Positions 2,807-44,075 of a DNA stretch of 64,000 nt are shown here, piece by piece. This DNA comes from a virus. The notes under the pieces were generated by a model. The model searched no databases. It saw only the letters and a list, made by a program, of their open reading frames with translations, and was not told where the DNA came from. Both the position numbers and the translations under genes were made by a program. Numbering within the stretch: the stretch's first letter is position 1; the number at the start of each line of letters is the position of its first letter. The stretch lies in IMG/VR virus record IMGVR_UViG_3300045988_162908. One strand, given 5' to 3'.

Positions 2807-3460
2807 ATGGGAAAGGATCAAGAGACTGTAGAACAGAAAAGCCAGCGATTTAAGCAACTCTGCATTGGCATTCTTGCACAGAGCGGGAATTGCCAGGCTT
2901 CTCAGCATGATTTTGGTGAAACTACAAGTATCAGGGAAATGTGCGATACTTGGCATAAGTATTGGCATGGCATGATAACGGAGGTTCCACAACAGGTGGT
3001 GCAAGCCTTTCATGATTTCTATCCCGATTTCAAGACTGAAATCAATGCGGCTGGCATCTTCTATAATGAGGACTCCCGAACAGGCTATGTACTTGTTGGG
3101 GATAGCGATGAACCTATTCATCTTTTCTTTGCCCATACCGCTTATATTCTCGGCAAAGCGCAGGTGGTGCTGCATGGCAGTGCCTCTGCCTTGGCCATGA
3201 CTACTGGCTGCAAAGTGGAATTGTTGGATAATAGCCGAGCCACCATCAAGGAAGGTTACGCTATTGCCCGAAATAATTCTTATCTTGTGACAAGTAAGGT
3301 GGCTGAGTGTTACGACTGCGCTACCGTCCATATAACTGATGGCACATTGCACGACCATGGTCATAGAGAAATCTGTGCTTATGGAGAGGCAACTATCCAT
3401 AGTTTTACTTCTCGTCTGATAAAATTATACGATAAATCTAAATTGAGTATTAAGAAATGA
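2807..3460 (+). CDS. hypothetical protein (217 aa)
   Basis: First ATG of ORF 2801..3460. Its stop overlaps the next start (ATGA at 3457-3460). The equally long antisense ORF 2771..3400 is rejected on orientation and because its tail is repeat-derived. Confidence 0.5.
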   Translation: MGKDQETVEQKSQRFKQLCIGILAQSGNCQASQHDFGETTSIREMCDTWHKYWHGMITEVPQQVVQAFHDFYPDFKTEINAAGIFYNEDSRTGYVLVGDSDEPIHLFFAHTAYILGKAQVVLHGSASALAMTTGCKVELLDNSRATIKEGYAIARNNSYLVTSKVAECYDCATVHITDGTLHDHGHREICAYGEATIHSFTSRLIKLYDKSKLSIKK

Positions 3461-6366
3461 AATCCCATCTCACTATATTGGTTGACGACAAACCTACGGC
3501 GCAGGCTCCTGATTTCTCTATTGATATAGAGGATCAGAACCCTGTGTTCAACGATACCGAAATGTTCTCTTATCCATTCTCTTTACCGCTTGACGGAAAC
3601 AGATGGCTATTGAAGAACATCGAAGATCCGCGTGCGTCTATTCGTGCGGTAAACTTAGAGTATAAGCCTACCAAGATTTATGCCGACGGCTTGCCTTTCC
3701 GTAATGGTACGCTTGTCATGCAGGATGATGACGAGATAACCGATTCTCTCTCGATGAATATTGATGCCAGCACGCAATCATTCAGCGACCTTATCGGTTC
3801 GTTGAATTGCCGTGATATTCCAGTCAAGGACACAATCATCATCGGAGAAAAGATAGGTAATGTAAGAGTGGATATTGAGAGTGATCCGATAGTGAAGGTA
3901 GAGGTGTTTGTGGCTGGAGGTAAGCACAAGAGCGATAAGACGGAAACCAGAATAATACAGGCTCGACACGTTAGCGTGAGCAAGGTGCTGGAGCCGCAAG
4001 CCCTTGGCTTTTCTTATCCTGGTTCTTGTAAGGAATATGCTGGTACGACTACCGATCATAAGGCGGCAGACGCTTATAAGGCTGGCGAGAGGTCTTACCC
4101 TAACAATCATACCGTAAACGTTCCCGCTTTGGCAGATATGGGCGATTATATCAATGTATCGGCGGCTTATGGTGAGACGGATGGAGCAGGACGTGCCGCT
4201 ACTTATTGTAATGCTCGTGTCTGTTATAAGCATCATGGTTTGGATGATGAAGGGCAAACATCGAGTGATGTTATCAGCGTAAAGGATTGTAAGTGGACTT
4301 ATGAGGATTTATATCCATATTGGGTACTTGATGCAAGGCGACCGCAATCGGGTATCTGTTTCTATGTACTCTATTTTTTGGATTGTCTTTTTGCTCACCT
4401 TGGTGTATCTTTCGATAAATCTGCATTGATGAAAATCGAGGATATGAAGCATCTTTGTTTCTTTACAACTGTATGCGCCTACGATACTATCAGTTATTCT
4501 TATGATGAAAATGACCTTACTGGCGATAAACAACCTTTCCTTCATCGTCACCATGGTGACTATTATACGGAAAGGGAGATTTGGAATGCAAAGGATAAGA
4601 TTAATGATCCAACGTATGTAGCAGGTTCTGATAAGGAGGCAGAAGTTGTAGCAGAGAAGATTCCTGGCGAAATCAAGACAGGCTTCTTCAAGACGCAGGA
4701 ACATATCAATAGCTGGTTGGAGTCTCGTGGTTGCGGTGGTAAGATTGAAATCATTAAAGCAGAGGATAAAACGGTACAGGAACTTACCCTTACCACGCCT
4801 GAAGGTACGACAGAACATGTACAGGTAGGTGAAACGACAAGTGAAGGTGGTAAGGTTACAGGTATCAGTATCGAAGCTCAAATCAAGAAGTTCAGCGTAC
4901 AGGCGAATGTTCTCAATATGAAGGCGAATAGTGATAACTTTCCTGATGAGAGCGTAAGCACTGTTATCTCATCCTTAGAGGCAGCTTTTGGTATTAAGTT
5001 TTCCTATGATTATGAACAAAAGAAGGTTACTGCATATCTCATAAGGGACGTGTTGCGCCGTAGTGGTAATCCTGCCCGAACATTCCATGCAAACGTCCAT
5101 TCTATCACTCCTATGACAGAAAAGATTACAGGTGTGCGTATGCGCTATTCAGAGGAAAATGATACAAAAGACCAGCAGCAGTATATCAAGGACAGCCGTA
5201 AAAACAAGAATATGGGTTATGATACCGATTATAATTATACCGACTATCCAGAGCCAAATTCCGGAGATAATGCGACTGTTTACAATAAATCTTATGTGGA
5301 GTTCTTTCACAATCTCAGCAATGGCGATAAGCGATGCTATATCGACCAAAAAACGGGTAATGCCTATCGTGTCAAGGTAAATAGTGATGCTACTACCACG
5401 TCAGACTTGAAGCCTGTCCTTTTTGAGGTAGGTCAGTTTAAGGGAGTGGAATACGGAGATTGTAGTGAGGAAAATGAGGACTTTATTCAGGATATTAGTA
5501 TCGACTTTACTCCTGTACCTTTCAATGATGTTAATTACTTCAAGGAGATAGAGGCTGCATACGGCTCTCACGAGGCAACCGATTCTCATAGCGGAAAGAA
5601 ATATGGCGTAACTATCGCCGATAGTCAGCCTATTCTTTGCGCCTATGTGGATGAAGATATGGAACATGAATTTGTAGAGCAGATTATTAACCAAACTATT
5701 TCCTCTCCATTCTGCGATTTCTATATGAAACAATCTTTGAAACTCGTAGAGAGTTATGATCCATCGGACACCGATGACGGCAACTCTCCTTTGCAGGATG
5801 ATTCCCGTTGGGGCTTTGCTTTGGCGCTAATGCGAGGTGGTGGTGCAGACGCAAGTATTCAGTCTTATGATTTCAATTACGATGGTTTCGGTACATCGAA
5901 ATGGCGCTCTGCGGTAGGAAAATATGCCCTTGCTTGTGACTCTCTCGATATGATGGGCAATCTTTTTGATTATAATGGTATTCAGGAAGGATTGGGTGGT
6001 GGAGAGCGTTTTTCTCTAAAAATACGTGCATTCAAAGAACCTTCTTGGTTGAAGGACCCTAAGTATGCAGATGTTTCACTCTGTGCGCCTGACGAGGTGG
6101 ATGCGAGCACAGGTAAAGTAACAACTAAAATCAAGTCTCGCGGCTTGTTTGATACTTTTATTTTGCCGTATGCTTATTTCCTACTTAATCGCAAGAAATA
6201 CAAGATACGTTGCTCTACTACCGTGGCGCAGATAGCTGACATTCCTAATCACTGGCAGGAATGGTGGAATATAGGCGGTATCAAATGTCTTATTGACAAG
6301 GTGAATACTACTATCAGCGCAGAAACTGGACTTGACGAGGTAGAATTGACCGTGTATGCGCTATAA
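3457..6366 (+). CDS. large virion structural protein (969 aa; baseplate/tail-like guess)
   Basis: Uninterrupted 2.9-kb ORF, translationally coupled to the upstream gene and located just before the fibre genes. No catalytic motif seen. Confidence 0.75.
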   Translation: MKSHLTILVDDKPTAQAPDFSIDIEDQNPVFNDTEMFSYPFSLPLDGNRWLLKNIEDPRASIRAVNLEYKPTKIYADGLPFRNGTLVMQDDDEITDSLSMNIDASTQSFSDLIGSLNCRDIPVKDTIIIGEKIGNVRVDIESDPIVKVEVFVAGGKHKSDKTETRIIQARHVSVSKVLEPQALGFSYPGSCKEYAGTTTDHKAADAYKAGERSYPNNHTVNVPALADMGDYINVSAAYGETDGAGRAATYCNARVCYKHHGLDDEGQTSSDVISVKDCKWTYEDLYPYWVLDARRPQSGICFYVLYFLDCLFAHLGVSFDKSALMKIEDMKHLCFFTTVCAYDTISYSYDENDLTGDKQPFLHRHHGDYYTEREIWNAKDKINDPTYVAGSDKEAEVVAEKIPGEIKTGFFKTQEHINSWLESRGCGGKIEIIKAEDKTVQELTLTTPEGTTEHVQVGETTSEGGKVTGISIEAQIKKFSVQANVLNMKANSDNFPDESVSTVISSLEAAFGIKFSYDYEQKKVTAYLIRDVLRRSGNPARTFHANVHSITPMTEKITGVRMRYSEENDTKDQQQYIKDSRKNKNMGYDTDYNYTDYPEPNSGDNATVYNKSYVEFFHNLSNGDKRCYIDQKTGNAYRVKVNSDATTTSDLKPVLFEVGQFKGVEYGDCSEENEDFIQDISIDFTPVPFNDVNYFKEIEAAYGSHEATDSHSGKKYGVTIADSQPILCAYVDEDMEHEFVEQIINQTISSPFCDFYMKQSLKLVESYDPSDTDDGNSPLQDDSRWGFALALMRGGGADASIQSYDFNYDGFGTSKWRSAVGKYALACDSLDMMGNLFDYNGIQEGLGGGERFSLKIRAFKEPSWLKDPKYADVSLCAPDEVDASTGKVTTKIKSRGLFDTFILPYAYFLLNRKKYKIRCSTTVAQIADIPNHWQEWWNIGGIKCLIDKVNTTISAETGLDEVELTVYAL

Positions 6367-6369
6367 TTT

Positions 6370-6431
6370 AAAGGTAAAAAAGTAAAAAGGTAAAAAGGTA
6401 AAAAGAGCATTCTTGCTTTTAAAGGTAAAAA
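6370..6431 (+). repeat. GGTAAAAA-family array A2 with AGAGCATTCTTGCT core
   Basis: aaaggtaaaaaagtaaaaaggtaaaaaggtaaaaagagcattcttgcttttaaaggtaaaaa lies between the 969-aa gene and the ketosynthase. Confidence 0.85.
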
Positions 6432-6440
6432 TATACGACT

Positions 6441-7679
6441 ATGATGTACAAAGTAAGAAACGAAAGAAACTATATCACTGGTTTGGGTATTCATTCATGT
6501 CTTGGCGAGGATATTCCATCCTTCGCCAAGGCTTTGCATGATGGTAAATGCGGCTTATACCATGATACCTATCGAGAGAAGATTGGGTATCAGTCATGTT
6601 TGTGCGGTGCAGTACCCCAGGTAGCATTCAAATATACAGATCGTCTATCCAGGGCACAGAGGCAATGCTTCTCCCTTCCTACTTACTATGCGCTAAGTGC
6701 CGTAAAACAAGCTCTTGAAGAAGCAAAGGTAAGCGACGATTTCTTGAAGGATCATCATGTTTCTCTTATCGTAAGCAACGATTCTACCGCAGATGCAATG
6801 ATGGATATAGGTACAATCATGCAGCACACGAATGACACACGCTGTCTGGGTGCAGGTGCGGTGTTCCGCTCGCTCAACTCTACAGCGAGCATGAACCTTG
6901 CTTCCCTCTTGGGTATTCACGGTTTATCGCTTACCGTGAGTGCAGCCTGTGCAGGAGGCGGTCATGCCATCGGCTTAGCACAGATGCTTCTCAATAGTCA
7001 TCAAACGGAAATGGTTATTGTGGTGGGTATGCAGGAGGCTGGACCTTCCTCTATGCAGTCTTTCGACGCTTTGGGTGTATTCGCTACAGATGCGGTGCGA
7101 CCTTTCGATAAACACCGTTCTGGTCTTGCTCCTTCGGGTGGTGCGGCTTGCGTTATCTTAGAGTCGGAATATTTCTATCGCATGAGAAAGGAGGATGAGG
7201 ATATGAAACATACTCCTTTGGCAAAACTATCCGGCTACGGTTTCTCTACCAATGGTTTACAGTCTCCTTGCACCCCACTTGCCTCTTACGAGTCTGTTTC
7301 TATGGTTAAGGCGATAGATGATGCAGGCTTAGATGAAGGCGATATTGATGCGATCCTTGCTCATGCCACTGGTACCCCTGCAGGAGACGAAGCCGAGGCG
7401 ACTGCTATCATGGACTCCTTTACGCTCTGCCCTTACGTGGTAGCTACAAAGGGTATGACAGGGCATGAGTGTTGGATGGCAGGTGTATCGCAAGCCGTGC
7501 AAGCTACTTTGATGATCAAGCACGGCTTTCTTCCTGGTTGTGTAGGTACGAATGACAATGCCTTCCCTGATATGAAACTTGTAATGAAAACCATGAAATA
7601 TGAGCCGCATAATATCCTCTGTAATTCGTTTGGATTTGGGGGAACAAATGCGTCGTTTGTTATATCGAAGGCTATTTAA
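6441..7679 (+). CDS. beta-ketoacyl-ACP synthase, elongating KAS I/II type (FabF/FabB-like)
   Basis: Active-site Cys in SAACAGGGHAIG, first His in AHATGTPAGDEAE, second His in TKGMTGHECWMAG. C-terminal NSFGFGGTNASFVI. N-terminal ITGLGIHSCLG. Confidence 0.9.
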   Translation: MMYKVRNERNYITGLGIHSCLGEDIPSFAKALHDGKCGLYHDTYREKIGYQSCLCGAVPQVAFKYTDRLSRAQRQCFSLPTYYALSAVKQALEEAKVSDDFLKDHHVSLIVSNDSTADAMMDIGTIMQHTNDTRCLGAGAVFRSLNSTASMNLASLLGIHGLSLTVSAACAGGGHAIGLAQMLLNSHQTEMVIVVGMQEAGPSSMQSFDALGVFATDAVRPFDKHRSGLAPSGGAACVILESEYFYRMRKEDEDMKHTPLAKLSGYGFSTNGLQSPCTPLASYESVSMVKAIDDAGLDEGDIDAILAHATGTPAGDEAEATAIMDSFTLCPYVVATKGMTGHECWMAGVSQAVQATLMIKHGFLPGCVGTNDNAFPDMKLVMKTMKYEPHNILCNSFGFGGTNASFVISKAI

Positions 7680-7697
7680 AGGTAAAAAGGTAAAAGG
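7678..7697 (+). repeat. GGTAAAAA-family array A3
   Basis: aaaggtaaaaaggtaaaagg lies between the ketosynthase stop and the ACP start. Confidence 0.8.
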
Positions 7698-7700
7698 AAT

Positions 7701-7949
7701 ATGGAAAGGAAAGATATACAAAAAAGGCTGCATTCTATTATTAATGGATTGAGGTCATCGTGGAATAATGCAGAGATAACTGACAGCTCTGATCTGCGAG
7801 AAGATATAGGCTTAGAGTCTATTGATTTCTTGGACTTGATACTTCAGACAGAAACGATGTTTAGCATCAAGATTACTCCATCTGAAGCCGCAGGTTGCAA
7901 GGTAGTTTCAGACTTTGTTTCACTCGTGGAACAAAAAGTCAATAAGTAA
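7701..7949 (+). CDS. acyl carrier protein
   Basis: 82 aa. DIGLESIDFLDLILQTETMFSIKI matches the ACP D-S-L phosphopantetheine-serine helix II pattern. Lies directly downstream of the KS. Confidence 0.8.
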   Translation: MERKDIQKRLHSIINGLRSSWNNAEITDSSDLREDIGLESIDFLDLILQTETMFSIKITPSEAAGCKVVSDFVSLVEQKVNK

Positions 7950-7974
7950 CGTCTAACATTAAAATTAAATTAAA

Positions 7975-9078
7975 ATGGCAGAACAGATACTCTTAACATC
8001 CGGCTCTATATTGGCTGGCAATCCTATTACGTTTTCTATTAAACCGAGTGACGCGGGAAAATTACCATTTTTTCATCGTGTCATCGTAGAAGTAACGTAT
8101 GACACTAATAATGGTAGATACGAGTTTAACAAATTGCCTGTACCAGTAATTCAAGAAGGTAAGGATGTAGAGCTGGACGTTTCCTCTGCATTGCGTGTGC
8201 TTTTGGTGGACTTTCAATATTCGCCTCTTGTTGCTACTTACCCAATGGTCAAATGGTATATTAGGGCATACGATGAGTATATGGATAGTAATGGCGAGCT
8301 GCATACTAATGTAGGAGAGCATTTTTATCCGAAGAAACCGGAAGCAAGTGATGGCGGTGCCACCAATCTGCGATGTATTGCAGGCGCATTTTGGGATATT
8401 GAGAGAATGGTATCAGGTGTAACGAAATCGGTTAAATCTTTATCACGTAAACCTCAGTCTTTACCGCAACTGATGGTTGTAGGAGATACTTATGCCTATA
8501 CTCCTGCCTACCCTAAGCCTCAGTCTTTGTTGGATAGTCCAGAAAAACTCGTTGTCGATCAGTCTTTAGTGGATAACCCCAAAAAACTTGTTGCTCCACA
8601 ATCTCGTGAGGTTGAAATAACGAAGGAGGGTTTGCAGACCATTGGCGAGCAAAGTATCTATGCTATGCCGAAAGATGAAGGGAAAGACCGTATGGTTTTC
8701 CGTTTTATTAATTCCTTCGGTGTATTGGAGTGCGTAAACATACCAAGAACGTATAGCAAGAAACTCTCTATCCAGAGTAATACCTATACAGTTACGAAGT
8801 TGGAAACCTTCAATAGCTTTTCTCGTTCTGCAGTAACTAAGAAGAATGATCGGGAAAGCTGGTTGTTTATGACTGACCCGCTGGATGAGAATTGGTTGCA
8901 ATGGTATCTGCATGAGTTCTTGATGAGTAATCATATCTGGCTAAATGTGAAGGGTAACTGGATTCCAGTTACCATCATTCCGGAAGATGAAATCACATTC
9001 CTGGATAAGACTAATACTAATATGTATTCCGTATCATTTACAGCGAAATTCGACATCTACGGACCAGCAAGCGTTTAA
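7975..9078 (+). CDS. hypothetical virion-module protein (367 aa)
   Basis: Long co-oriented ORF between the ACP and the giant fibre gene. Confidence 0.65.
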   Translation: MAEQILLTSGSILAGNPITFSIKPSDAGKLPFFHRVIVEVTYDTNNGRYEFNKLPVPVIQEGKDVELDVSSALRVLLVDFQYSPLVATYPMVKWYIRAYDEYMDSNGELHTNVGEHFYPKKPEASDGGATNLRCIAGAFWDIERMVSGVTKSVKSLSRKPQSLPQLMVVGDTYAYTPAYPKPQSLLDSPEKLVVDQSLVDNPKKLVAPQSREVEITKEGLQTIGEQSIYAMPKDEGKDRMVFRFINSFGVLECVNIPRTYSKKLSIQSNTYTVTKLETFNSFSRSAVTKKNDRESWLFMTDPLDENWLQWYLHEFLMSNHIWLNVKGNWIPVTIIPEDEITFLDKTNTNMYSVSFTAKFDIYGPASV

Positions 9079-14755: not shown

Positions 14756-17557
14756 ATGAAAAAAATAGTGAAAGGAAATGACTTCACGCTGCGAATCCCA
14801 GTGATGAAGATGGTAGAGGGGACAGCTCAGGCTTTCCCTCTGCCAGCCTGTACCGACGTGCTGGTACAGGTGTGTAATCAGTTTAGGCGCATCCCTCTTG
14901 CATTTGAGATTGATGTAAAGGAGGACAATGTTCTCCTTGCGAGAGTAGAGGGTGACAAGATGAGCCTCGGAACTTACGCCATCGAGGTAAGGGGCAAAAT
15001 CTTCGGCAATGACTGGCGAAGCAACGAATATCCTCAGTTTTCCATTGTAGCTAAGAATGCCGATGCTGATACTGAATTTGGAGAGACTGACGAGGGCGAT
15101 AATAGCGTGGAGATGGATACCGCTATAGTCATCCTCCCTCCTTCCGTGGAATTGTCTGACCTCATCAATAAGGCGAATGATGCTCTCAAAACCAACAAGG
15201 AGACAAACGATACCCTCAATACTAACGAGGAAGCACGTAAGGAAGCAGAGGTGAAACGAGTATCTGCCGAGTCTGAGCGAGTATCTTCCGAACAGACGAG
15301 AGTATCTGCTGAGGATGCTCGCATGACGGCAGAGACCAGTCGTGTAAATGCGGAATCCGACCGAGAGCGAGCGGAAGATGCTCGTACCCAAATCGAGATT
15401 GAGCGACAGGCAAATGAACTTACACGCAAGGATAACGAGGCGAAGCGTATCAATGCTGAAACATTAAGGAACAATGCCGAGAAGTTGCGTGTCTTGCAAG
15501 AGAATGAGCGCAAGGGTAACGAGGACGTTCGTAAGTCAGATGAGGATGCACGTATCAAGGCTGAAAGCGCACGTAGCAAGGCTGAGACCAAGAGAGAGGA
15601 AGATTTCTCTGCATCAAAGGAAGCCGCTGACAACGCAACCGAAAAAGCTTTATCTACTTATTCCCACCCTCCTTATGCTGATAGCGATGGTTTCTATTAC
15701 AAGTGGAATCCTGACACGCAGAGTTACGACAAGACGGATGTGAACTTGAAGGCGCAGCCTAGCAAACCAGCCTTTGTCTTCAAGTCGGTTGAAGAAATGG
15801 AGACTACGGACATAAATAACTTCGACCTGTATGATTATGTTATCATCAATACCGACGATACAGAGGATGAGGACAATGCGAAGCTGTACCTCATAGACAA
15901 GAACGAGGATGGCACAAAATATTACCATTACCTTGTTGATATGAGTGGTTTCCGTGGATTTGCTGGCAAGACACCTCAAATCTCCATCGGAACGATTACC
16001 ACCCTACTTCCTAGCGAGAAGGCTAGTGTAGCCATGACCAGCGACGGTATGGATGAGCAAGGAAACCCCAAATACGTCATTAACTTCGCTATTCCGCAAG
16101 GACGGAAAGGCGATAAGGGTGATTCATTTTCTTACGCTGACTTCACGGCAGAGCAAATCGAGGAGCTACAAAAACCTGCTACTGATGTTATTGCAACACT
16201 TGGTCAGACCAAGGTGGATTGTGAGAATGCTACAAAGGCAGCAAACGATGCTGCTTCTGACGCTACCGTAGCTAAGACCAAGGCAGAGAACGCTGCTTCT
16301 GGGGCAGAGAAGTGTAACGTCATCCTTGAAGGCTCTACTATCTCTGTGACCAACAGACACGGAGAAACCGAGTCGGTAGATGTTATTAATACCGACGAGG
16401 AAGTAACCGTTACCATCGCCTCTTCTGTGGAATCTATCAAGGTGGCAGGCATTAAGATTAATGTGTTCCTCAATAACGGAAAGACACCTCAGAGCTATAC
16501 CACCAACGCAGAGGGTAAGGCTACATTCACTATTTATCGAGGAAACTACTATCAGGTCGTATTCCCTGAGTATGGCAATGCGCAGCCTATCGCTCCTCAA
16601 GGCTATACAGCAGTATTGGGCAGTCGTAATATCAATGTAGAATATCTGCCTTACGATGAAGACAGTATGGAGAAGGCGATTATCACGGTTACTAAGTACG
16701 ATAATAACGTGGGGACGGCATGGGAAGGTATTCCTGTTGTTGTGACCGTTGACAGAAAAGATACCACCTATCAAACTGACGCAAAAGGTCAGGTAACGGT
16801 ATTCGTACCATATAAGAAGGAATATACTGTAAGAATTGATAATCAGGATGGCTATAACGTTAGCTTTAACAAAAATTCAAGAACCAATACCGCGAATGTT
16901 CCTCAGAGACTTATCGACTACAGGTTCTATCAGTTTAAGGCAGGTATTTTTGTAGTAGATATTGACAAAAATGAGTACTACATCGAGGACTGGGTAGCAG
17001 CAGGCAAAACCGCTGATGATGCGGTAGCTATCAAGGTGGCGGATGCCTCATTATTAGTCAATCATGGTACTTTCTGTATCCGTACAAGTGACATTAAGAA
17101 CGTGTCGCAGTTGGTCAGTAAGCCATGGTGTACACAGAACTTGCAGTTCGATTCTATTGCGCTGAATGGTAATAATGTAAAAGATGCAAATTACTACAAC
17201 GGAGAATCTTCATCATACCTTATCAGACAGGAGGCTCAGGAGCGAAGTTTATCTGTGCCAGCTTTTGATTATGCCTACGATCAGATATTCACAATCGGTG
17301 ATGAAGAACTTCATGGATTTGTCATGTCGGTTGGTCAGGAATACGTACATGTAGCCAATATCGGTATCATCAAACAGGTGTTGGAAACCCTGTATGGCGA
17401 AGAAGTAGCTACTAATTATTACGACTTTGTGATGAAGAAATACAGATGGACTTCTACGCAGGGCAGCGCTACGAACGCTTGGACCTTCAGTAGTAGTGCA
17501 AGCAACTTCTACTCCAAGTGGTACGGTTCCGTGGTCCTGCCAGTTTACGCTTGTTAA
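14756..17557 (+). CDS. tail fibre / receptor-binding protein, DGR target (933 aa)
   Basis: Periodic AE..R coiled-coil repeats (about aa 150-290), a GRKGDKGD motif and two beta-sandwich-like segments. The C-terminal ...WTSTQGSATNAWTFSSSASNFYSKWYGSVVLPVYAC is the variable region matching the TR. Confidence 0.9.
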   Translation: MKKIVKGNDFTLRIPVMKMVEGTAQAFPLPACTDVLVQVCNQFRRIPLAFEIDVKEDNVLLARVEGDKMSLGTYAIEVRGKIFGNDWRSNEYPQFSIVAKNADADTEFGETDEGDNSVEMDTAIVILPPSVELSDLINKANDALKTNKETNDTLNTNEEARKEAEVKRVSAESERVSSEQTRVSAEDARMTAETSRVNAESDRERAEDARTQIEIERQANELTRKDNEAKRINAETLRNNAEKLRVLQENERKGNEDVRKSDEDARIKAESARSKAETKREEDFSASKEAADNATEKALSTYSHPPYADSDGFYYKWNPDTQSYDKTDVNLKAQPSKPAFVFKSVEEMETTDINNFDLYDYVIINTDDTEDEDNAKLYLIDKNEDGTKYYHYLVDMSGFRGFAGKTPQISIGTITTLLPSEKASVAMTSDGMDEQGNPKYVINFAIPQGRKGDKGDSFSYADFTAEQIEELQKPATDVIATLGQTKVDCENATKAANDAASDATVAKTKAENAASGAEKCNVILEGSTISVTNRHGETESVDVINTDEEVTVTIASSVESIKVAGIKINVFLNNGKTPQSYTTNAEGKATFTIYRGNYYQVVFPEYGNAQPIAPQGYTAVLGSRNINVEYLPYDEDSMEKAIITVTKYDNNVGTAWEGIPVVVTVDRKDTTYQTDAKGQVTVFVPYKKEYTVRIDNQDGYNVSFNKNSRTNTANVPQRLIDYRFYQFKAGIFVVDIDKNEYYIEDWVAAGKTADDAVAIKVADASLLVNHGTFCIRTSDIKNVSQLVSKPWCTQNLQFDSIALNGNNVKDANYYNGESSSYLIRQEAQERSLSVPAFDYAYDQIFTIGDEELHGFVMSVGQEYVHVANIGIIKQVLETLYGEEVATNYYDFVMKKYRWTSTQGSATNAWTFSSSASNFYSKWYGSVVLPVYAC
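17455..17549 (+). other. DGR variable region (VR)
   Basis: 95 nt that align to TR 18145-18236. There are 9 substitutions, all opposite TR adenines, plus one extra codon (tcc at 17513-17515). Confidence 0.9.
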
Positions 17558-17671: not shown

Positions 17672-18289
17672 ATGGCATTTACAGAGGATTTGTACATATA
17701 TAAAGATACGCTACTCTTGTGCAAGATATTACTCAAGTATAGTAATAGCGTGAGTAGAACCGTCAGATTTACAACCTACAATGAAGCGGTCGTCAAGTCT
17801 TGTACAGCTCTTGACTTGGTTAGGAGAATTAATGAAAGTTGGGAGAATAGAGAGGAGCGTATGCACGATTATATTCTGCTTATGTCGGAAGTTAAGTCAA
17901 GGATCAGCCTCCTCACGGATGCCGAGTTCTTAAACAAGAAACAGGCAACTAACCTTAATATGATGTCAGACAAGGTACTGAAGGAGGTGTACGGCTGGCG
18001 GAAGTCTGAGCGGAAGCGCAAAGGCGAGAATTGCAGAGTCAACGACAATGCGAGAGTGCCGTCACTGGATGTGACAAGGGGTACAATCACGCAACTCACT
18101 TATGTGAGAAGTGAGCAGACTGAAAAACAGAGAATGTACCGAGATACGCAGAGCAGCGCTACGAACGCTTGGAACTACAGTAGTAGTGCAAACAACAACT
18201 ACAAGTGGAACAGTTACGTGGTCCTGCCAGTTTACGATTATCCAACAGTGACGAATGCCTCTGTATTTGCTATTTTTAAAGGGATATGA
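17672..18289 (+). CDS. avd: Avd-like accessory protein; the ORF continues through the TR
   Basis: The N-terminal ~115 aa are helical and basic (..EVYGWRKSERKRKGE), in the position of the DGR accessory variability determinant. The ORF has no stop until TGA 18287-18289, which overlaps the RT ATG. Confidence 0.7.
   Translation: MAFTEDLYIYKDTLLLCKILLKYSNSVSRTVRFTTYNEAVVKSCTALDLVRRINESWENREERMHDYILLMSEVKSRISLLTDAEFLNKKQATNLNMMSDKVLKEVYGWRKSERKRKGENCRVNDNARVPSLDVTRGTITQLTYVRSEQTEKQRMYRDTQSSATNAWNYSSSANNNYKWNSYVVLPVYDYPTVTNASVFAIFKGI
18145..18236 (+). other. DGR template region (TR)
   Basis: tacgcagagcagcgctacgaacgcttggaactacagtagtagtgcaaacaacaactacaagtggaacagttacgtggtcctgccagtttacg. AAC-rich and lies between avd and the RT. 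Confidence 0.9.
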
Positions 18290-19452
18290 AATTTGAAAGA
18301 GAATATGTTACGATAGAAGAGGTGTATGCCGCCTATTATGACTGCTGCAAGCATAAAGGTTCAACACCAGGTTGCATCGAATATCAGATGAACTACATTG
18401 CGAATAATTATCAGCTATATATCGAACTCAACTCGATGATATATGAGATAAGTAAGAGCAAGGCGTTTTGTGTGACGAGACCAAAGCTCAGGGAAGTGTT
18501 CTGTGCAGATTTCCGTGACCGCATCATTCACCATCTGCTTGCTATCAAGTTCACGGATATACTCGAAGGCGAAATGACAGATAAGGCGTATGCCTGCCGT
18601 AAGGGTAAGGGAACTGGTTATGGTATCGCTGATGTCAAGAAGCAAATAAAGCGAGTGAGCGATAACTATACTAAGGAAGCATGGATATTGAAAGGTGATT
18701 TACAGGGCTTCTTCATGAGCATCAATCGTTTACTCCTTTACGACCTCTTCGAAAAGGCCATCAGAAAAAAGTATCATGGAAGTGATATAGAATGGTGGCT
18801 GTGGCTATGGAAGAAAGTCGTCTTACATGACCCGACAAAGAACTGTGTTCGAGTAGGCGATTTGAGCTTGTGGGATAAGCTTCCTGCTAACAAGTCGCTT
18901 TTTACCTGCGGTGAGGGCAAGGGACTCCCGATCGGCAACCTGCCATCGCAATTACTTGCCAACCTTCTGCTATCTCGATTCGATAAGCTGATGATAGAGC
19001 GAGTGGGCGAAGATGGTGGATATGGCAGATATGTAGATGATTTTGTGGTTATCGGTAGGGATAAAAAGTTACTCCTGAATATTCTGCAAGAGGCAAGGAA
19101 CTATCTGTTAGAAGAGCTTGGTCTTACGTTGCATCCTCATAAGGTTAGCCTACAGAGAGCAGCGAGTGGAGTGAGGTTCACGGGCGTATTAATTCGTCCA
19201 GGCAGGACACTTCCAAACCAACGAACGATAGAACATCTATATGACGTGATTGATAGGTTCGGGATGGCGCCCAACCCTGAAGGTGAAGTATTACAGAGGT
19301 ATGCAAACCGCATCAACAGTCTGATGGGTATGCTTGCTCATTGCAATACTTATAACATTAGACGAAAAGCGTGGACTATGATGCCGCACAAAGACAGAGT
19401 TTTCTGCATAAATATGAAGAAAATTAGAATAATGAATAAATATAAAATGTAA
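18286..19452 (+). CDS. DGR reverse transcriptase
   Basis: GLPIGNLPSQLLANLLLSRFD and YGRYVDDFVVIG (YxDD) motifs. 388 aa. Confidence 0.9.
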   Translation: MKFEREYVTIEEVYAAYYDCCKHKGSTPGCIEYQMNYIANNYQLYIELNSMIYEISKSKAFCVTRPKLREVFCADFRDRIIHHLLAIKFTDILEGEMTDKAYACRKGKGTGYGIADVKKQIKRVSDNYTKEAWILKGDLQGFFMSINRLLLYDLFEKAIRKKYHGSDIEWWLWLWKKVVLHDPTKNCVRVGDLSLWDKLPANKSLFTCGEGKGLPIGNLPSQLLANLLLSRFDKLMIERVGEDGGYGRYVDDFVVIGRDKKLLLNILQEARNYLLEELGLTLHPHKVSLQRAASGVRFTGVLIRPGRTLPNQRTIEHLYDVIDRFGMAPNPEGEVLQRYANRINSLMGMLAHCNTYNIRRKAWTMMPHKDRVFCINMKKIRIMNKYKM

Positions 19453-20977: not shown

Positions 20978-21399
20978 TAGATAGAAAATGGAAGAAGGAG
21001 GGTTACACCATCAGCAAGGTGTATGTAGATGGCGAGGATTTCCACTGCAATTGCCTTGAGGACACCGACCGTGGATTGTATCAGGGCATGAGTACCGCGG
21101 ACGTGCTGGCTGTAAAGGAAAAAGGCAAGACTGCCATTCCGAGAGGCACCTACCATGTGATCTACACCTATTCCCCTCGTTTCAAGCGCCGCCTGCCCCT
21201 ATTAGAGAATGTCACTGGCTTTGCGGGCATCCGCATCCACCCCGGCAATTCGGCCAAGGACACCGAGGGCTGCCTGCTTTTTGGCAAGAACGACAAGGTG
21301 GGATGGCTCAGCGACTCAAAGCTTTGGACCCTTCGCATCATCGAGAAGATGAAGGAGGCTTGGGAACGCAAGGAGAAAGTCGTAATCACAATCCAATAA
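20965..21399 (+). CDS. YkuD-like / DUF5675-like protein, candidate cell-wall enzyme
   Basis: GIRIHPGNSAKDTEGCLLFG resembles the L,D-transpeptidase-fold H..G..C catalytic motif. Follows two membrane proteins. First ATG of ORF 20944..21399. Confidence 0.55.
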   Translation: MQILIDRKWKKEGYTISKVYVDGEDFHCNCLEDTDRGLYQGMSTADVLAVKEKGKTAIPRGTYHVIYTYSPRFKRRLPLLENVTGFAGIRIHPGNSAKDTEGCLLFGKNDKVGWLSDSKLWTLRIIEKMKEAWERKEKVVITIQ

Positions 21400-21586
21400 A
21401 GGTAAAAAAGTAAAAAAGTAAAAAAGTAAAAAGAGCATTTTTGCTCCAAGATGGACTTTTAAAAGTAAAAGGTAAAAAGGTAAAAATGGCAGGGATATAT
21501 ATTGCCCTACTGATTTTTTACCTTTTTACCTTTTTACTCTTTTACCTTTTTACCTTTAAAAGGCTCTTTTTACTTTTAAAATAGCG
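21398..21586. repeat. GGTAAAAA-family array A4, forward and inverted halves
   Basis: Forward copies at 21398-21445 and 21461-21487; inverted copies at 21514-21586. Lies between convergent genes and can form a very long hairpin. The inverted half encodes the lipoprotein C-terminus (..LKVKRAF). Confidence 0.85.
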
Positions 21587-22430: not shown

Positions 22431-22496
22431 TTTTTTACCCCTAAAATAGCAAGCCTGTTCTTTTTGCCTTTTTACTTTTTTACCTTTTTACCTTTT
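22431..22496 (-). repeat. GGTAAAAA-family array A5 (inverted orientation)
   Basis: ttttttacccctaaaatagcaagcctgttctttttgcctttttacttttttacctttttacctttt lies upstream of the lipoprotein gene. Confidence 0.8.
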
Positions 22497-22850: not shown

Positions 22851-23405
22851 ATGGCAAAAGTTAAATTTGCGCCTGATGTGGAAAGCATATCGGGCAAGCT
22901 CTGCTCCAGAAGCGGAGTTATCTATGCTGTCAACAAGCAGACGGGTGTCACACATCGTATGGAACGACATGAGTATTCTGATGCTAACACCGAAGTGCAG
23001 CAGACTCTTCGCAAGACTTTCTCGTCGATGAGCAAGTTAGCCTCCGCTTGGTGGAAAACCAACAAACCATCAGACAAGCAGCCGAAAGGCAGCGAAAACT
23101 ATCAGCTCTTGATGAAGGCTTACAAGAGTCAGCACAAGATTGGCAATCCCTACAGCTATATGCGTGCGCTTGTGACCGACGACATGAAGGTGAAGTTGGG
23201 CGACCTTGACATTACGGGTAGCGTGACCGCAGGTGGCACTGGCTCGCAGGGTGGAAGCCCTTCCACCGGCAATAGCGGCTCGCAGACTGCAGGCGGCACT
23301 GGCTCGCAGGGTGGAAGCCCTTCCACCGGCAATAGCGGCTCGCAGACTGCAGGCGGCACTGGCTCGCAGGGTGCAGGCGGCACTGGTGAAGGTGGCGAAG
23401 GCTAA
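22851..23405 (+). CDS. hypothetical protein with Gly/Ser/Thr-rich repeat tail (184 aa)
   Basis: The C-terminus is GGTGSQGGSPSTGNSGSQTA x2 plus partial copies, encoded by the 60-bp tandem repeat. Confidence 0.6.
   Translation: MAKVKFAPDVESISGKLCSRSGVIYAVNKQTGVTHRMERHEYSDANTEVQQTLRKTFSSMSKLASAWWKTNKPSDKQPKGSENYQLLMKAYKSQHKIGNPYSYMRALVTDDMKVKLGDLDITGSVTAGGTGSQGGSPSTGNSGSQTAGGTGSQGGSPSTGNSGSQTAGGTGSQGAGGTGEGGEG
23229..23392 (+). repeat. 60-bp tandem repeat (about 2.7 copies)
   Basis: gcaggYggcactggctcgcagggtggaagcccttccaccggcaatagcggctcgcagact repeats with an exact 60-nt period. Confidence 0.9.
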
Positions 23406-23425
23406 AATCCTTCTTTTTTTACTTA

Positions 23426-24013
23426 TTAGTCTTCGGGCAATAATACCACCCCTACCCTAACCTTCTGTCCACAATGTGGGCAGAAGGTTTCTGCACGCAT
23501 CATATTGTTTTCGGTACGGATATTGCCGTTTTCGGTACGGATATTGCCGTTTTCGGTACGGATATTGCCGTTTTCGGTACGATTATCGGCATTTTCCATC
23601 GACTTTTCGTCTGCTGTCATCAGTCTCTTTGGGTCGAGAAATTCCATCAATTCATCCACCTCTTCCTTCTTGATGCTTGGGTAGGCTTTCTTCACCAAGT
23701 ACTGCAATCTCAGAGCGAGTGGCGTGCTGATGTTATTTGCATAGTCGATGGCTTCTTTTATTTCCTGCTCCTGCACCTGCTCCATTTCTCTATCCTGCTT
23801 TTCTTTTTCCGCAGCCTCTTCTGCTGGGTCGGGATAGAAAAGGTCGGTGATGTCGCAGCCGATGCCTTCAGCTATCTGCATGAGCTTGGCAACGGTAGGA
23901 TTGCCTTTTATTACCGAGGTCAAACTTTGAGGAGAGAGACCTAATTTTTCGCCAAGTTGAACCTGGGTTATATTGTGATCAGATAATGCTCTTTTTATAT
24001 CTAAATGCTTCAT
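23426..24013 (-). CDS. XRE-family HTH transcriptional regulator (repressor-like)
   Basis: N-terminal ITQVQLGEKLGLSPQSLTSVIKGNPTVAKLMQIAEGIG is a classic HTH_3. Followed by an acidic linker, ENGNIRT heptad repeats and C-terminal CPHCGQ. Confidence 0.8.
   Translation of the reverse strand: MKHLDIKRALSDHNITQVQLGEKLGLSPQSLTSVIKGNPTVAKLMQIAEGIGCDITDLFYPDPAEEAAEKEKQDREMEQVQEQEIKEAIDYANNISTPLALRLQYLVKKAYPSIKKEEVDELMEFLDPKRLMTADEKSMENADNRTENGNIRTENGNIRTENGNIRTENNMMRAETFCPHCGQKVRVGVVLLPED
23507..23590. repeat. 21-bp tandem repeat (3 perfect copies plus 1 degenerate)
   Basis: gttttcggtacggatattgcc repeated. Encodes ENGNIRT repeats in the minus-strand regulator. Confidence 0.9.
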
Positions 24014-40398: not shown

Positions 40399-40454
40399 GT
40401 AAAGGTAAAAAGGTAAAAGAGTAAAAAGGTAAAAAGAGCATTCTTGCTTTTACC
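40399..40454 (+). repeat. GGTAAAAA-family array A6 with AGAGCATTCTTGCT core
   Basis: gtaaaggtaaaaaggtaaaagagtaaaaaggtaaaaagagcattcttgcttttacc. Confidence 0.85.
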
Positions 40455-41034: not shown

Positions 41035-41910
41035 ATGGCAGAAACAAGATTGAAAGAAATCCTCGCCTTCGTAAATCACAAGGGAGGAGTTGGTAAGACA
41101 ACAACAGTTCAGAGTTTGGCAACAGGTCTTCGTCGTTACGGCAAAGGTCATTTCGGTTTGGGTAAAGATGGCAAGGAGCGCAAGCCTCGCATCCTGCTAA
41201 TTGACCTTGACCCCCAGTCAAGTCTCTCCTTCCTCTTTGGATGGAGTGAGGCAGAGAATGCCGGGCAGCCTACCGTATATGATGCGATGATACAGCAGTC
41301 TCGTTTGCCTGTCTATCAGGTAAGAGAGGGCATATATCTCGCTCCTGCATCTTACAGATTGATCAACATCGAGCCTTTCCTCAACCAGATGCCGGTACCA
41401 CGCAAGGCTTTGTTTAAGCTATTCAGTAAGCCGATGACGGAAGTTCGAGGCGACGAATTGACAACGGAAGGAGTTTCATCTATCCTGGAGGCTTTCGATT
41501 ACGTTCTGATAGACTGCCCCCCAGCGTTATCTCTGCTTACGCATAATGCCCTATCGGTTGCATCGGGCGTGGTAATACCTATCCAGCTCGAAATGCTGGC
41601 AACAAAAGGTATTGCTGAAATTCTGAATGCGGTGCAGGAAACTCGTGAAGACTTGAATCCTGATATTGATATTCGCGGTTTGTTCATGGTAATGAGCAAT
41701 GATCAGACAAGAGCCACTAAGCAGTTTAAGGAGTATCTGGGCAATAAGTTTGATGACTATATGTTTGATTCATACACTCGTCGAGATACGAAGATGGTGG
41801 AGGCACAAGCCCTCAATCAGGATATATTCTCTTATTCGCCTTATTGCAGGGTAGGACAAGACTATGAGAATTTTACGAAAGAGATATTGGCCAGTATGCC
41901 GAAAGATTAA
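41035..41910 (+). CDS. parA: ParA-family partition ATPase
   Basis: Deviant Walker A NHKGGVGKTTT. 291 aa. Has ..LIDCPPAL.. and the overall ParA/Soj layout. Confidence 0.9.
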   Translation: MAETRLKEILAFVNHKGGVGKTTTVQSLATGLRRYGKGHFGLGKDGKERKPRILLIDLDPQSSLSFLFGWSEAENAGQPTVYDAMIQQSRLPVYQVREGIYLAPASYRLINIEPFLNQMPVPRKALFKLFSKPMTEVRGDELTTEGVSSILEAFDYVLIDCPPALSLLTHNALSVASGVVIPIQLEMLATKGIAEILNAVQETREDLNPDIDIRGLFMVMSNDQTRATKQFKEYLGNKFDDYMFDSYTRRDTKMVEAQALNQDIFSYSPYCRVGQDYENFTKEILASMPKD

Positions 41911-41958: not shown

Positions 41959-42366
41959 ATGGCAAGACAAGCATCGAATAATTTGAATAAGTTTAAAGGA
42001 CTGGAAGACTCTCCAGCCATCCAAGGTATAGAAAGAATTTATGAGGCTAACGAGGAAGCTCACCAAAAGCGAGTTGCCGAAGCTTTGGAACAACAGCAGA
42101 ACGGACAGGGTACCGCAGAGACGGACACTATGTCACAGACTGATGCACCTTCGCACTCTCCGGTCCCTCCTGTATCATCTGCCCCTATTTCTACTCCCGA
42201 ACCTGCTCCAGCGAAAAAAACTGGCAAGAAGACTCAGAACGGCATCACTATCTATGTGCCGATGAACTACTACATGCAGATATTACAGATGAAGATGGAG
42301 ACGGGTGTTCCTATTAAGGATATTGCCCTGCAAGCTGTCATCGAGTACCTGAATAGACATAAATAA
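41959..42366 (+). CDS. ribbon-helix-helix centromere-binding protein (ParG/CopG-like)
   Basis: Disordered P/S/T-rich N-terminus. C-terminal GITIYVPMNYYMQILQMKMETGVPIKDIALQAVIEYLNRH fits strand-helix-helix. Directly follows parA. Confidence 0.6.
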   Translation: MARQASNNLNKFKGLEDSPAIQGIERIYEANEEAHQKRVAEALEQQQNGQGTAETDTMSQTDAPSHSPVPPVSSAPISTPEPAPAKKTGKKTQNGITIYVPMNYYMQILQMKMETGVPIKDIALQAVIEYLNRHK

Positions 42367-42400
42367 AGGTAAAAGGGCAAAAGAGTAAAAAGGCTTTTGC
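42365..42400 (+). repeat. GGTAAAAA-family array A7
   Basis: aaaggtaaaagggcaaaagagtaaaaaggcttttgc. Confidence 0.75.
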
Positions 42401-42647: not shown

Positions 42648-42779
42648 TGGTAAACGAAAAGTCAGATTGTGGTAAACGAAAAGTCAGATTGTGGTAAATG
42701 AAAAGTCAGATTGTGGTAAACGAAAAGTCAGATTGTGGTAAACGAAAAGTCAGATTGTGGTAAACGAAAAGTCAGATTT
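42648..42779 (+). repeat. six tandem 22-bp iterons (origin of replication)
   Basis: tggtaaacgaaaagtcagattg x6, head to tail with no spacers (copy 3 has c->t). Ends 3 nt before the rep ATG. Confidence 0.9.
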
Positions 42780-42782
42780 GAT

Positions 42783-44075
42783 ATGATTGATGATAATGAA
42801 AACAAGGGTTTAGCCTGGATAAATACTCCTTTTTCACTCACGAAACTGGATAGACAATACTCTCTTTTTCAGCAAAATGTGTTGATGATAACAAGCACGC
42901 ACCTACAGAAGTTTGTAGATGAGTACTTTTTAGAGAAAAGGCAGTTGGGCGATGCTCGTTCTGATTTTCTTTTTGAGCAAGGCGTGGACCATGCTGTGAT
43001 GAATATCCCGCCTATTAAGATAGACATCCATGATTTCATTACTTGCGAGAATATGAGCTATCAGAAGTTGAGATCGGAGCTAAAGACAAGCATTCTCGAT
43101 ATGACGGTGAAGAGTACGCTGCCCGATGGTAGCGATGAGTTTGCTCATATATTCAGCCGCATGAGTATTCCGTCATCGAAGAACGGATATACGACTAAGG
43201 ACGGAAAGAAGGTGAACCGCATATTGGGATATATCACGCTTGAGATTGATCCGAAACTTTCTAAGCGGGTGTTTGATATGGGACAGGGGTATATTCACCA
43301 TATATCTATGATAGCTAAGTTTGCTAAGAATGTGAATACCCCTCGTGTCTATATCTATCTTTTGCGACAGATAGGATTGAGCAGGAGTATGGATATAGCC
43401 GTACCCTTCCTGGAGCTGAAATCTTATCTTGGTTTAGTGGAACTTGATTGTAATAAGAAAGAAATCTTAAAGAATGAATCTGGAGAGCCTGTTATGAACA
43501 AATATCCTAAATTTTCTCAGTTTAGAAAGCAAGTTCTTGATGTGGTATGCAGAGATTTGCAGAGAATGGAAAAGCTATCCCAGACAGATATTGTGTTTGA
43601 CGAATTGAAAGATGAGGATATTATCTATAAATCGGGTAAACGGAAAGGTGATCCGGACTTCATCAGATTTCGCGTGAAGCGCACAGTAGTAGGTGAGAAT
43701 CATTTATCTAAGGATAAAAATACCGATATTGCCGCTACTCTGAATGAGCGATACAAGCAGAACAGCGTACAGAAGACCGGGAAACTGGTAGAGGGTGATA
43801 TATTCGCCCATGTGCATCAGCCTACGGAAAGCAAGATTATAACCGAGAGCGGACAGGGTACCGACAAGTGGAAGGCTTTCTGTAAGCTCATTATAGGCGA
43901 CGCTGAAAAATCACTGGTTTCCCGCATTTCCTTTGTCGGTATGAAGAACGACAGGTTCTGCGTGGAGTGCAGCGATGAGGACTTTGATATGCTTCGAAAG
44001 TTGGGCATCGAGGAAAAAGCTAAGGAGTTCTTTGACTGCAAAGGTTCTTTTGCACCAGTATTCTACCGAGGGTAG
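42783..44075 (+). CDS. plasmid-type replication initiator (Rep_3/RepB-like guess)
   Basis: The ATG at 42783 lies just after the iterons; the tracked GTG start 42735 is inside them. N-terminal ..AWINTPFSLTKLDRQYSLFQQNVLMITSTHL resembles iteron-binding initiators. The position is the strongest evidence. Confidence 0.6.
   Translation: MIDDNENKGLAWINTPFSLTKLDRQYSLFQQNVLMITSTHLQKFVDEYFLEKRQLGDARSDFLFEQGVDHAVMNIPPIKIDIHDFITCENMSYQKLRSELKTSILDMTVKSTLPDGSDEFAHIFSRMSIPSSKNGYTTKDGKKVNRILGYITLEIDPKLSKRVFDMGQGYIHHISMIAKFAKNVNTPRVYIYLLRQIGLSRSMDIAVPFLELKSYLGLVELDCNKKEILKNESGEPVMNKYPKFSQFRKQVLDVVCRDLQRMEKLSQTDIVFDELKDEDIIYKSGKRKGDPDFIRFRVKRTVVGENHLSKDKNTDIAATLNERYKQNSVQKTGKLVEGDIFAHVHQPTESKIITESGQGTDKWKAFCKLIIGDAEKSLVSRISFVGMKNDRFCVECSDEDFDMLRKLGIEEKAKEFFDCKGSFAPVFYRG

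Follow-up and report, generated by a model that had tools for sequence, protein, structure and literature searches.

In type II fatty acid synthases (FASs) and polyketide synthases (PKSs), the ketosynthase (KS) and the acyl carrier protein (ACP) set the chain chemistry and the identity of the pathway. By comparison, the phosphopantetheinyl transferase (PPTase), malonyl transferase, and reductive enzymes are promiscuous and open to borrowing from another pathway; for FabD and AcpS, activity on heterologous type II ACPs is known. In aryl-polyene (APE) clusters, a homodimeric FabB-like KS, ApeR, is found beside a KS/chain-length factor (CLF) pair and raises the throughput of the pathway; its pocket volume is given as ~120 Å^3, compared with ~74 Å^3 for FabB (PMC8358021). 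ACPs carried by phages are already known as auxiliary metabolic genes (AMGs) or morons, and a report on predicted roseobacter prophages describes fabG-acpP-fabF arranged as in the host operon (PMC8224337). Here we describe a KS gene and an ACP gene that lie next to each other in a 64,000-nucleotide stretch of the IMG/VR virus record IMGVR_UViG_3300045988_162908, the whole of which is called the window below. What is new is a KS that matches no PHROG family, the occurrence of the pair as a hallmark of a phage lineage, and its likely polyene-PKS-like ancestry. Literature searches aimed at phage KS and ACP genes yielded no description of a conserved KS-ACP pair, only generic mentions of AMGs, and the gut-phage family paper of Benler et al. 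makes no mention of ACP or ketoacyl.

The KS gene (6441..7679, + strand) encodes a 412-aa FabB-like enzyme of the β-ketoacyl-ACP synthase I (KAS I) type, as indicated by Pfam, NCBIfam, phmmer against PDB sequences, and Foldseek. The N- and C-terminal ketoacyl-synt domains (PF00109, 85 bits, 7e-24; PF02801, 67 bits, 2e-18; cut-off 20.8) together span the full length of the protein. The top-ranked NCBIfam models are FabB, a polyketide KS model, and FabF. The FabB equivalog NF005935 scores best at 192.4 bits, though its cut-off of 630 is not reached; the FabF (KAS II) equivalog TIGR03150 gives 171.6 bits against a cut-off of 493.75, and the KS falls short of every NCBIfam equivalog cut-off by a wide margin. 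With phmmer, the KS aligns full-length to FabB, the best match being the V. cholerae enzyme (4xox, 1.6e-41). Its AlphaFold2 model (predicted local distance difference test, pLDDT, 70.7; predicted template modelling score, pTM, 0.81) retrieves FabB structures at the top of a Foldseek search, with a template modelling (TM) score of 0.80 over ~418 columns.

Residues were mapped from alignments to V. cholerae FabB and to E. coli FabB and FabF, the latter two taken from NC_000913.3. The phage C170/H308/H342 triad corresponds to C163/H298/H333 of E. coli FabB, K337 to the catalytic Lys K328, T310/T312, D316, and E319 to T300/T302, D306, and E309, and the gating residues F397/F399 to F390/F392. Across 20 KS homologues of 59-96% identity, C170, H308, K337, H342, and F397/F399 are unchanged. 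An earlier note on the window made without database searches, referred to here as the sequence-only reading, had described a complete elongating condensing enzyme with its triad in normal contexts. That description stands: the quoted triad contexts SAACAGGGHAIG, AHATGTPAGDEAE, and TKGMTGHECWMAG and the C-terminal GFGGTNASFVI are all found in the KS. By alignment, this ORF is a full-length FabB-like KS with all catalytic residues, and we tentatively predict a catalytically competent condensing enzyme of the homodimeric FabB-like type. In the pocket, the substitutions G107S, M197S, and E200S distinguish it from FabB, with several positions carrying smaller residues, and two of the five basic residues used by FabB for ACP docking are retained.

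The ACP gene (7701..7949, + strand, 82 aa) follows on the same strand after a gap of 21 nt. It matches the Pfam PP-binding domain (PF00550, 31.6 bits, 2e-7, cut-off 20.8) and PHROG 5934 (acyl carrier protein, moron/AMG, 9e-10). NCBIfam ACP models rank first, yet at 44 bits the equivalog cut-off of 66 is not reached. The serine motif GLESIDFLDL, already noticed in the sequence-only reading, is present, and the Ser of LESID aligns to the DSLD of E. coli AcpP. This Ser, within the motif L-[ED]-S-[IL]-D, is constant in 51 distinct phage ACPs from three phage lineages. We conclude from these matches that the ORF is a genuine ACP with a predicted phosphopantetheine serine. The phage ACPs have a pI of 4.8-5.7 compared with 4.05 for AcpP. 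A carrier less acidic than AcpP, together with a KS that mostly lacks the docking basic residues of FabB, suggests that the KS and ACP form a co-adapted pair.

A profile scan of IMG/VR for the KS returned 189 relatives, of which 80 were fetched. The group that includes the window, clade A (~70 loci, KS identity 55-100%), has a constant gene order: a DUF6712 gene, then genes for proteins of 362, 219, and 969 aa, the KS, the ACP, and genes for proteins of 367 and 1859 aa. The comparison of synteny proposed in the earlier note thus gives an order that is invariant in ~70 loci. By the Nei-Gojobori method, comparisons of the window with five close relatives put the ratio of nonsynonymous to synonymous substitution rates (dN/dS) of the KS at 0.07-0.11. 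The ACP gives 0.04-0.06 in all but one of the five, where the ratio reaches 0.31. For both genes the values are comparable to those of the adjoining genes. The invariant catalytic residues, the constant ACP Ser, and the low dN/dS argue that both genes are kept for function. Between sub-clades the KS diverges faster than the adjoining structural genes, at 59% versus 77-78% identity.

The pair sits between two conserved genes. On its 5' side is the 969-aa gene of the structural block (3457..6366, + strand), which is 69-100% identical within clade A and directly precedes the KS in all its members; on its 3' side is the 367-aa gene (7975..9078, + strand), which follows the ACP throughout the clade. 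A profile search of IMG/VR with the 969-aa protein recovered 66 loci. The KS lies downstream of the homologue in 61 of them, including all of those in which the 969-aa protein is at least 68% identical. The KS-less junctions are in L223, L231, L233, L239, and L242 (contigs of 63-95 kb, 969-aa homologue 36-47% identical). In four of these contigs (L223, L231, L239, and L242), a 367-aa homologue begins ~15 nt after the 969-aa homologue with no KS or ACP between, and an 1859-aa-like gene comes next in three of the four. The KS scan, which used an FGFGGTN pattern that is constant in every KS examined, did not return any of the five contigs either, and judged by sequence the KS is probably missing from them altogether. 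Since the 969-367 junction is contiguous in the KS-less relatives, the KS-ACP pair interrupts it. The structural block of this sister group runs 598 / 335 / 334 / 862 / 341 / 667 aa and offers a natural with/without comparison set.

A moron insertion had been proposed from the sequence alone, and this proposal holds in part. The pair does split two genes that adjoin each other in related phages. The patchy presence, deviant GC content, and own promoter and terminator that mark a moron are not found. The GC content of the KS-ACP stretch is 0.435, the same as that of its flanks, and no + strand terminator-like site lies within 6366-7975. A sigma-70 promoter scan around the pair was not above chance, the model used not being one of Bacteroidota promoters. 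The presence at 61 of 66 loci, the GC content, and the purifying selection all indicate that the insertion is not recent or sporadic.

The pair is also found outside clade A. Clade B, on ~100-kb contigs, carries a KS 40-48% identical to that of the window, with the gene order ACP-KS. The clade shares with the window a primase-like gene, a clamp, an exonuclease, and a radical-SAM-like gene. The 367-aa, DUF6712, and 219-aa genes have homologues there as well, as does the N-terminal part of the 1859-aa protein. The radical-SAM-like ORF (330 aa; window 60607-61599, L067 14662-15438, L075 16945-17763) has a weak match to PF04055 and matches PHROG 13321; it is 33-38% identical between the clades and is among the few genes they share beyond the replication genes and the KS and ACP. 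In L067, the ACP-KS pair comes directly after a tape-measure protein (phrog_25337, 8.6e-36) and is followed by primase-like, thymidylate-synthase-like, and radical-SAM-like genes. The 969- and 1859-aa proteins were considered as counterparts of the clade B tape measure and set aside, as BLASTP gave no similarity. A third lineage is represented by L081, a 160,875-bp contig from an otherwise unrelated larger phage, in which the pair (9992-11358), in the order KS-ACP, has a dNMP kinase/5'-3' exonuclease region on one side and a T4-type terminase on the other. Its KS is N-terminally shortened to 377 aa and has 35% identity. The KS-ACP pair is therefore among tail genes in clade A only, and the link to tail genes drawn by the sequence-only reading is not general: in clade B the pair precedes primase- and thymidylate-synthase-like genes, and in the 160-kb phage it lies amid nucleotide-metabolism genes. 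In a neighbor-joining (NJ) tree with 100 bootstraps, the KSs of clades A and B group together with a support of 93. The two-gene cassette appears to have changed place within or between large phages of Bacteroidota before it became fixed.

The phages of clade A appear to be uncultured, very common human-gut phages of Prevotella/Segatella with genomes of ~100-107 kb. The source names attached to the KS relatives are those of Prevotella/Segatella metagenome-assembled genomes (MAGs), and other proteins of the window are found on contigs of 107,243 and 107,314 bp. The 90%-identity cluster around the KS of the window has 953 members, and the family is very large in metagenomes, where 7,934 of the 8,000 candidates scored reach E <= 1e-10. 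The identical KS protein is recorded on at least 13 contigs, and the three places inspected are three independent samples. Viral features of the window include a diversity-generating retroelement (DGR), a ParA-like gene, a sliding-clamp homologue, an exonuclease, and a 1229-aa primase-like gene. Among GenBank phage records, none resembles the KS-ACP region, the putative capsid-block gene, or the primase-like gene. The sole related KS there is on an unannotated 6.8-kb faecal contig (41% identity). KS matches in "phage" records of Listeria, Staphylococcus, Enterococcus, and E. coli were set aside as FabF/FabB-like sequences of 25-29% identity that are probably host DNA or cargo.

We next consider where the pair came from. 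In a search of 1.84 billion representative proteins, the KS family stands isolated: the matches beyond the phage clusters are either at most 40% identical or belong to multi-domain type I PKSs. When one genome per prokaryotic species was scanned, the closest KSs, 40-43% identical, were on chromosomes of Flavobacterium, Sphingobacterium, and Chryseobacterium and in Tannerellaceae and Bacteroidales MAGs, with no relative above 43% in these species-representative genomes. With no KS in these genomes closer than 43%, the pair is not a recent capture from the host. In F. pectinovorum, the sole cellular locus scanned with Pfam, the genes run aromatic amino-acid lyase, ketoreductase (KR), KS, ACP, LpxL-like acyltransferase, FAD oxidoreductase, and FabH-like, which is the composition of a flexirubin/APE-type cluster. 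The Bacteroidales MAG L155 has similar ORF sizes, with an ACP-sized ORF three ORFs downstream of the KS. The motifs TGHECWM, xNDS, and NST are common to the KSs of all three phage lineages and these cellular relatives and are not found in E. coli FabB or FabF, which have GHSLGAAG and GHLLGAAG, respectively, at the TGHECWM site. As for phylogeny, another of the checks proposed in the earlier note, the NJ tree places the phage KSs and the flexirubin-cluster clade in one FabB-like group (support 97) with E. coli FabB outside, while the direct sister pairing of phage and flexirubin clades has a support of only 42-65. These comparisons make it likely that the KS-ACP pair was taken long ago from a Bacteroidota flexirubin/aryl-polyene-type cluster.

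No partner enzymes accompany the pair. The search covered ~95 of ~107 kb, comprising the window, 10 kb on either side, and 10 kb of a 96%-related IMG/VR contig. Pfam on the called genes of this region, taken around four anchor genes and from the 10 kb of the related contig, found no PPTase, acyltransferase, KR, dehydratase (DH), enoyl reductase, or thioesterase. Likewise, tblastn with E. coli FabD, FabG, FabH, and PlsX and with the KR, LPLAT acyltransferase, and FabH-like protein of the Flavobacterium cluster gave no match. A second KS or a CLF was sought by tblastn with the phage KS and FabF, which returned only the one gene. The absence of acyltransferase, reductase, dehydratase, and PPTase genes that had been reported for the window thus extends to ~95 kb of the ~107-kb genome. 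With no PPTase found in the phage, host AcpS would be needed, and the need for host functions of the FabD and AcpS type put forward in the sequence-only reading is borne out in that no other FAS or PKS genes were found.

The reading we favor, if tentatively, is that the KS and ACP form a minimal private elongation module that runs on host AcpS, FabD, and FabG/Z/I and yields a phage-labelled pool of acyl-ACP. The two genes would have come together, as one cassette, from a Bacteroidota type II cluster of the flexirubin/aryl-polyene kind. They would have entered an ancestor of the ~100-107-kb Prevotella/Segatella phage clade at the junction of two conserved structural genes and been held there by purifying selection since. 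During infection, a host AcpS-type PPTase would convert the phage apo-ACP to holo-ACP, and host FabD would load malonate onto it. The phage KS, primed by an acyl starter, would then condense this starter with the malonyl-ACP of the phage, and the β-keto intermediate would be processed by host enzymes of the FabG/FabZ/FabI type. Host malonyl-CoA and acyl flux would in this way be diverted to an acyl-ACP pool on a phage-specific carrier. In clade A, the pair may be co-expressed with the late genes. We infer that the module relies on AcpS, FabD, and reductive enzymes of the host, that it is expressed together with the late genes, and that its purpose is an orthogonal acyl pool. The occurrence of the KS and ACP alone in three phage lineages and in different contexts fits the idea that they are the specificity-determining minimum of such a pathway.

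Several points weigh against this elongation module. The KS is far under the NCBIfam equivalog cut-offs (192 versus 630 bits for FabB), and its substrate may differ from ordinary fatty acyl chains. The search for partner enzymes reached ~95 of ~107 kb, a very divergent PPTase or acyltransferase could escape it, and most phage ORFs have no family assignment. The need for extra lipid synthesis in the late operon of a lytic cycle is not evident. Finally, the nearest cellular KS comes from a pigment (polyene) pathway rather than from FAS, which favors a second explanation involving host aryl polyenes.

In this second explanation, the pair feeds an aryl-polyene or flexirubin-like pathway of the host, with the KS acting like ApeR to boost or redirect outer-membrane polyene lipids. 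Possible purposes are protection of the infected cell from oxidative stress or a remodelling of the surface that leads to superinfection exclusion. The closest cellular KSs form one clade that shares derived motifs with the phage KS, and the inspected member is in a flexirubin/APE-type cluster with the same KS-ACP adjacency; the clade is, however, just 40-43% identical to the phage KS and its sister support is weak (42-65). The throughput effect of ApeR in APE clusters (PMC8358021) and pocket residues smaller than those of FabB (G107S, M197S, and E200S) would suit such a role. An APE cluster has been reported in at least one gut Prevotella assembly (PMC8863827), but the explanation demands a cluster in every host strain, and no Prevotella or Segatella genome is among the 80 best cellular KS relatives. 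The ~95 kb of the phage genome covered show no lyase, CoA ligase, KR, DH, or LPLAT. We regard this explanation as unlikely on balance, though it deserves to be taken seriously.

A third explanation dispenses with reduction. The KS and ACP, with host FabD, could act as a minimal polyketide synthase that makes a short unreduced poly-β-keto or β-keto-acyl product, such as a pyrone, methyl ketone, or β-keto acid, which might serve as a diffusible signal, toxin, or cofactor-like molecule. The conservation of only the KS and ACP in three phage lineages and unrelated contexts, the PKS-like ancestry, and the lack of detectable reductive enzymes in the phage are all compatible with this. Type II minimal PKSs need a chain-length factor, though, and no second KS-like ORF was found, nor any cyclase or thioesterase. 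The KS is also FabB-like, and FabB-like enzymes normally pass their intermediates on to reductive enzymes. Such a synthase is in our estimation improbable.

The position of the pair in clade A bears on a fourth explanation, put forward in the earlier note, in which the acyl-ACP lipidates a virion, tail, or fiber protein, or the KS and ACP are themselves packaged in the virion. That note had described the neighbors as virion and tail genes. The flanking 969-, 367-, 1859-, and 933-aa ORFs do exist in the same orientation as the pair, and the 933-aa ORF (14756..17557, + strand) encodes a probable receptor-binding or tail protein that has weak PHROG matches to virion structural and minor tail proteins and is the target of the DGR. 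The DGR is complete, with an Avd-like gene (17672..18289) and a reverse transcriptase (18286..19452), and the variable repeat (VR) at 17455-17552, at the 3' end of the 933-aa ORF, differs from the template repeat (TR) at 18145-18239 at TR adenines alone. This makes the 933-aa protein a probable hypervariable receptor-binding protein, and it is this ORF that argues most strongly for a virion module here. The description is less secure for the other neighbors. The 1859-aa ORF has a single marginal tail-fiber match, and the 969- and 367-aa proteins have no sequence match in Pfam, PHROG, or the PDB. The same is true of the 362-aa protein, for which tblastn against GenBank phages was also empty. 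An AlphaFold2 model of the 367-aa protein was set aside (pLDDT 38.7, from a shallow alignment of sequences at 79% identity or more).

Lipidation or packaging could be read into the location of the clade A pair inside the structural block, upstream of the DGR-diversified protein, and of the clade B pair directly after the tape-measure gene, and several ORFs with a GNAT-type acyltransferase fold lie elsewhere in the genome. No acyltransferase adjoins the pair, and relatives with the same structural genes manage without KS and ACP. In clade B the pair also borders the replication module, and in the 160-kb phage it is among nucleotide-metabolism genes; these non-tail contexts in other lineages weaken the idea of virion or fiber-protein acylation, which we consider decidedly improbable.

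The pair could instead serve host takeover as a sink or decoy, draining malonyl-CoA or the holo-ACP machinery or titrating FAS partners and so shutting down host lipid synthesis. The KS does evolve faster than the adjoining structural genes (59% versus 77-78% identity), and no consumer enzyme was identified, but a sink does not need a dedicated ACP, and the strict conservation of the whole catalytic apparatus and the ACP Ser argues for real turnover; we hold this to be very improbable. An artefact (a chimera of the assembly, contaminating host DNA, or a non-functional host gene that hitch-hiked recently) has in its favor the a priori oddity of a phage KS and the many GenBank "phage" KS matches that look like host DNA, and its probability is negligible: misassembly of host-derived DNA, the danger named in the sequence-only reading, is excluded by the identical KS on at least 13 contigs and in three independent samples, by the same junctions in ~70 IMG/VR contigs, and by the GC content shared with the flanks, and neither the dN/dS of about 0.1 nor the lack of any species-representative relative above 43% suits a hitch-hiker.

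The KS is flanked by arrays of an 8-nt repeat. One (AAAGGTAA)n array (6370..6431, + strand) is within the 74-nt spacer 5' of the KS, and a short one (7678..7697, + strand) is within the 21-nt KS-ACP spacer. These arrays were reported in the earlier note as bracketing the KS, and they are present, but they are not tied to the insertion. The window has 35 copies of GGTAAAAA compared with 3.15 expected, at no fewer than 10 intergenic sites, and further intergenic AAAGGTAA arrays are at 2773-2797, 21398-21557, 22460-22496, 40401-40436, 42365-42394, 44080-44250, and 47327-47466. Several are inverted pairs at convergent or divergent gene ends and could fold as long hairpins. The GGTAAAAA arrays are also found in the near relative L001 and are absent from the other clade A loci that bear the same KS-ACP insertion. 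A role as insertion scars was rejected on these two grounds, the genome-wide distribution in the window and the absence from other insertion-bearing members; the arrays are a sub-lineage-specific intergenic repeat unrelated to the KS-ACP insertion. They might act as a terminator, a regulator binding site, or a translation leader.

Other features of the window and its relatives concern the phage rather than the pair. Pfam and PHROGs on the window and the flanking loci L014, L015, and L176 found no terminase, portal, major capsid, sheath, or tube protein, and the window contains no tRNA genes. A 22-nt unit, TGGTAAACGAAAAGTCAGATTG, is present in six perfect tandem copies at 42648-42778, overlapping the start of ORF 42735..44075 and 0.7 kb downstream of the ParA-like partition gene (41035..41910). 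These repeats resemble iterons or a parS site and hint at plasmid-like maintenance, as in a phage-plasmid lifestyle. The stretch at 23225-23596 has a GC content of 0.50 compared with ~0.43 and is rich in repeats (a 60-nt unit x2.5 and a 21-nt unit x3.6), with overlapping ORFs on opposite strands (22851..23405, +, and 23426..24013, -). At positions 1-145 of L014, a 71.8-kb contig, and 10 kb upstream of the window start, there is a LysR-type regulator gene (HTH_1 and LysR_substrate). It lies upstream of an endolysin/methylase region and may be phage-borne or mark a host junction.

A conserved, selected KS and ACP for which no other pathway genes were found implies a defined reprogramming of host lipid or polyketide chemistry, which is not described for tailed phages of Bacteroidota in the literature found. 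For the study of how phage and host interact through lipids in Segatella/Prevotella, which are keystone taxa in the gut microbiomes of non-Westernised people, the pair offers a concrete and testable point of entry. It may also be of interest for pathway engineering as a natural example of a minimal gene set for an orthogonal acyl-carrier line that runs on host FAS enzymes. A bolder version of the elongation module is that the pair is the core of a virus-directed biosynthetic line, in which an orthogonal, phage-labelled acyl- or polyene-ACP pool leads to an infection-specific product and the cassette has spread among at least three lineages of large phages. Such a product might remodel the outer membrane of Prevotella (as a lipid or polyene), serve as the lipid anchor of a virion or receptor-binding protein, or act as a small polyketide signal. 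We think this version unlikely; if it is true, an abundant phage lineage of the human gut has a PKS-type module as a hallmark. If the pair is an ordinary fatty-acid AMG, the finding is modest and the two genes are still a marker pair for the lineage.

Compared with described systems, the phage pair most resembles the KS and ACP of flexirubin and APE clusters, with which it shares the KS-then-ACP adjacency, the FabB-like fold, and the full Cys-His-His triad, with no CLF-type Gln substitution in the phage KS. It differs in that the phage has no aromatic lyase, KR, DH, LPLAT, FabH-like protein, or exporter in the ~95 kb examined, in its score against the FabB profile (192 bits versus 402 bits for the Flavobacterium enzyme), and in being virus-borne, inside a structural block in clade A. 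The FabB/FabF-AcpP systems of E. coli and Vibrio provide the closest solved structures and have the same catalytic residues, gating Phe residues, and canonical ACP Ser motif, yet the phage KS is only 26-29% identical to these enzymes and lies outside any fab operon. Like the type II minimal PKS of ishigamide biosynthesis, whose KS/CLF structure (6kxd) is among both the structural and the sequence matches of the phage KS, the phage has a discrete KS and a dedicated ACP that would rely on the FAS malonyl transferase. Unlike it, the phage has no CLF gene detectable by tblastn, and its KS is nearer the homodimeric FabB type. With the lipid AMGs of other phages, the pair has in common that it is a phage-carried, host-derived metabolic gene set whose ACP belongs to PHROG 5934; it departs from them in not following the fab-operon order, in being fixed in its lineage, and in its likely PKS-like ancestry.

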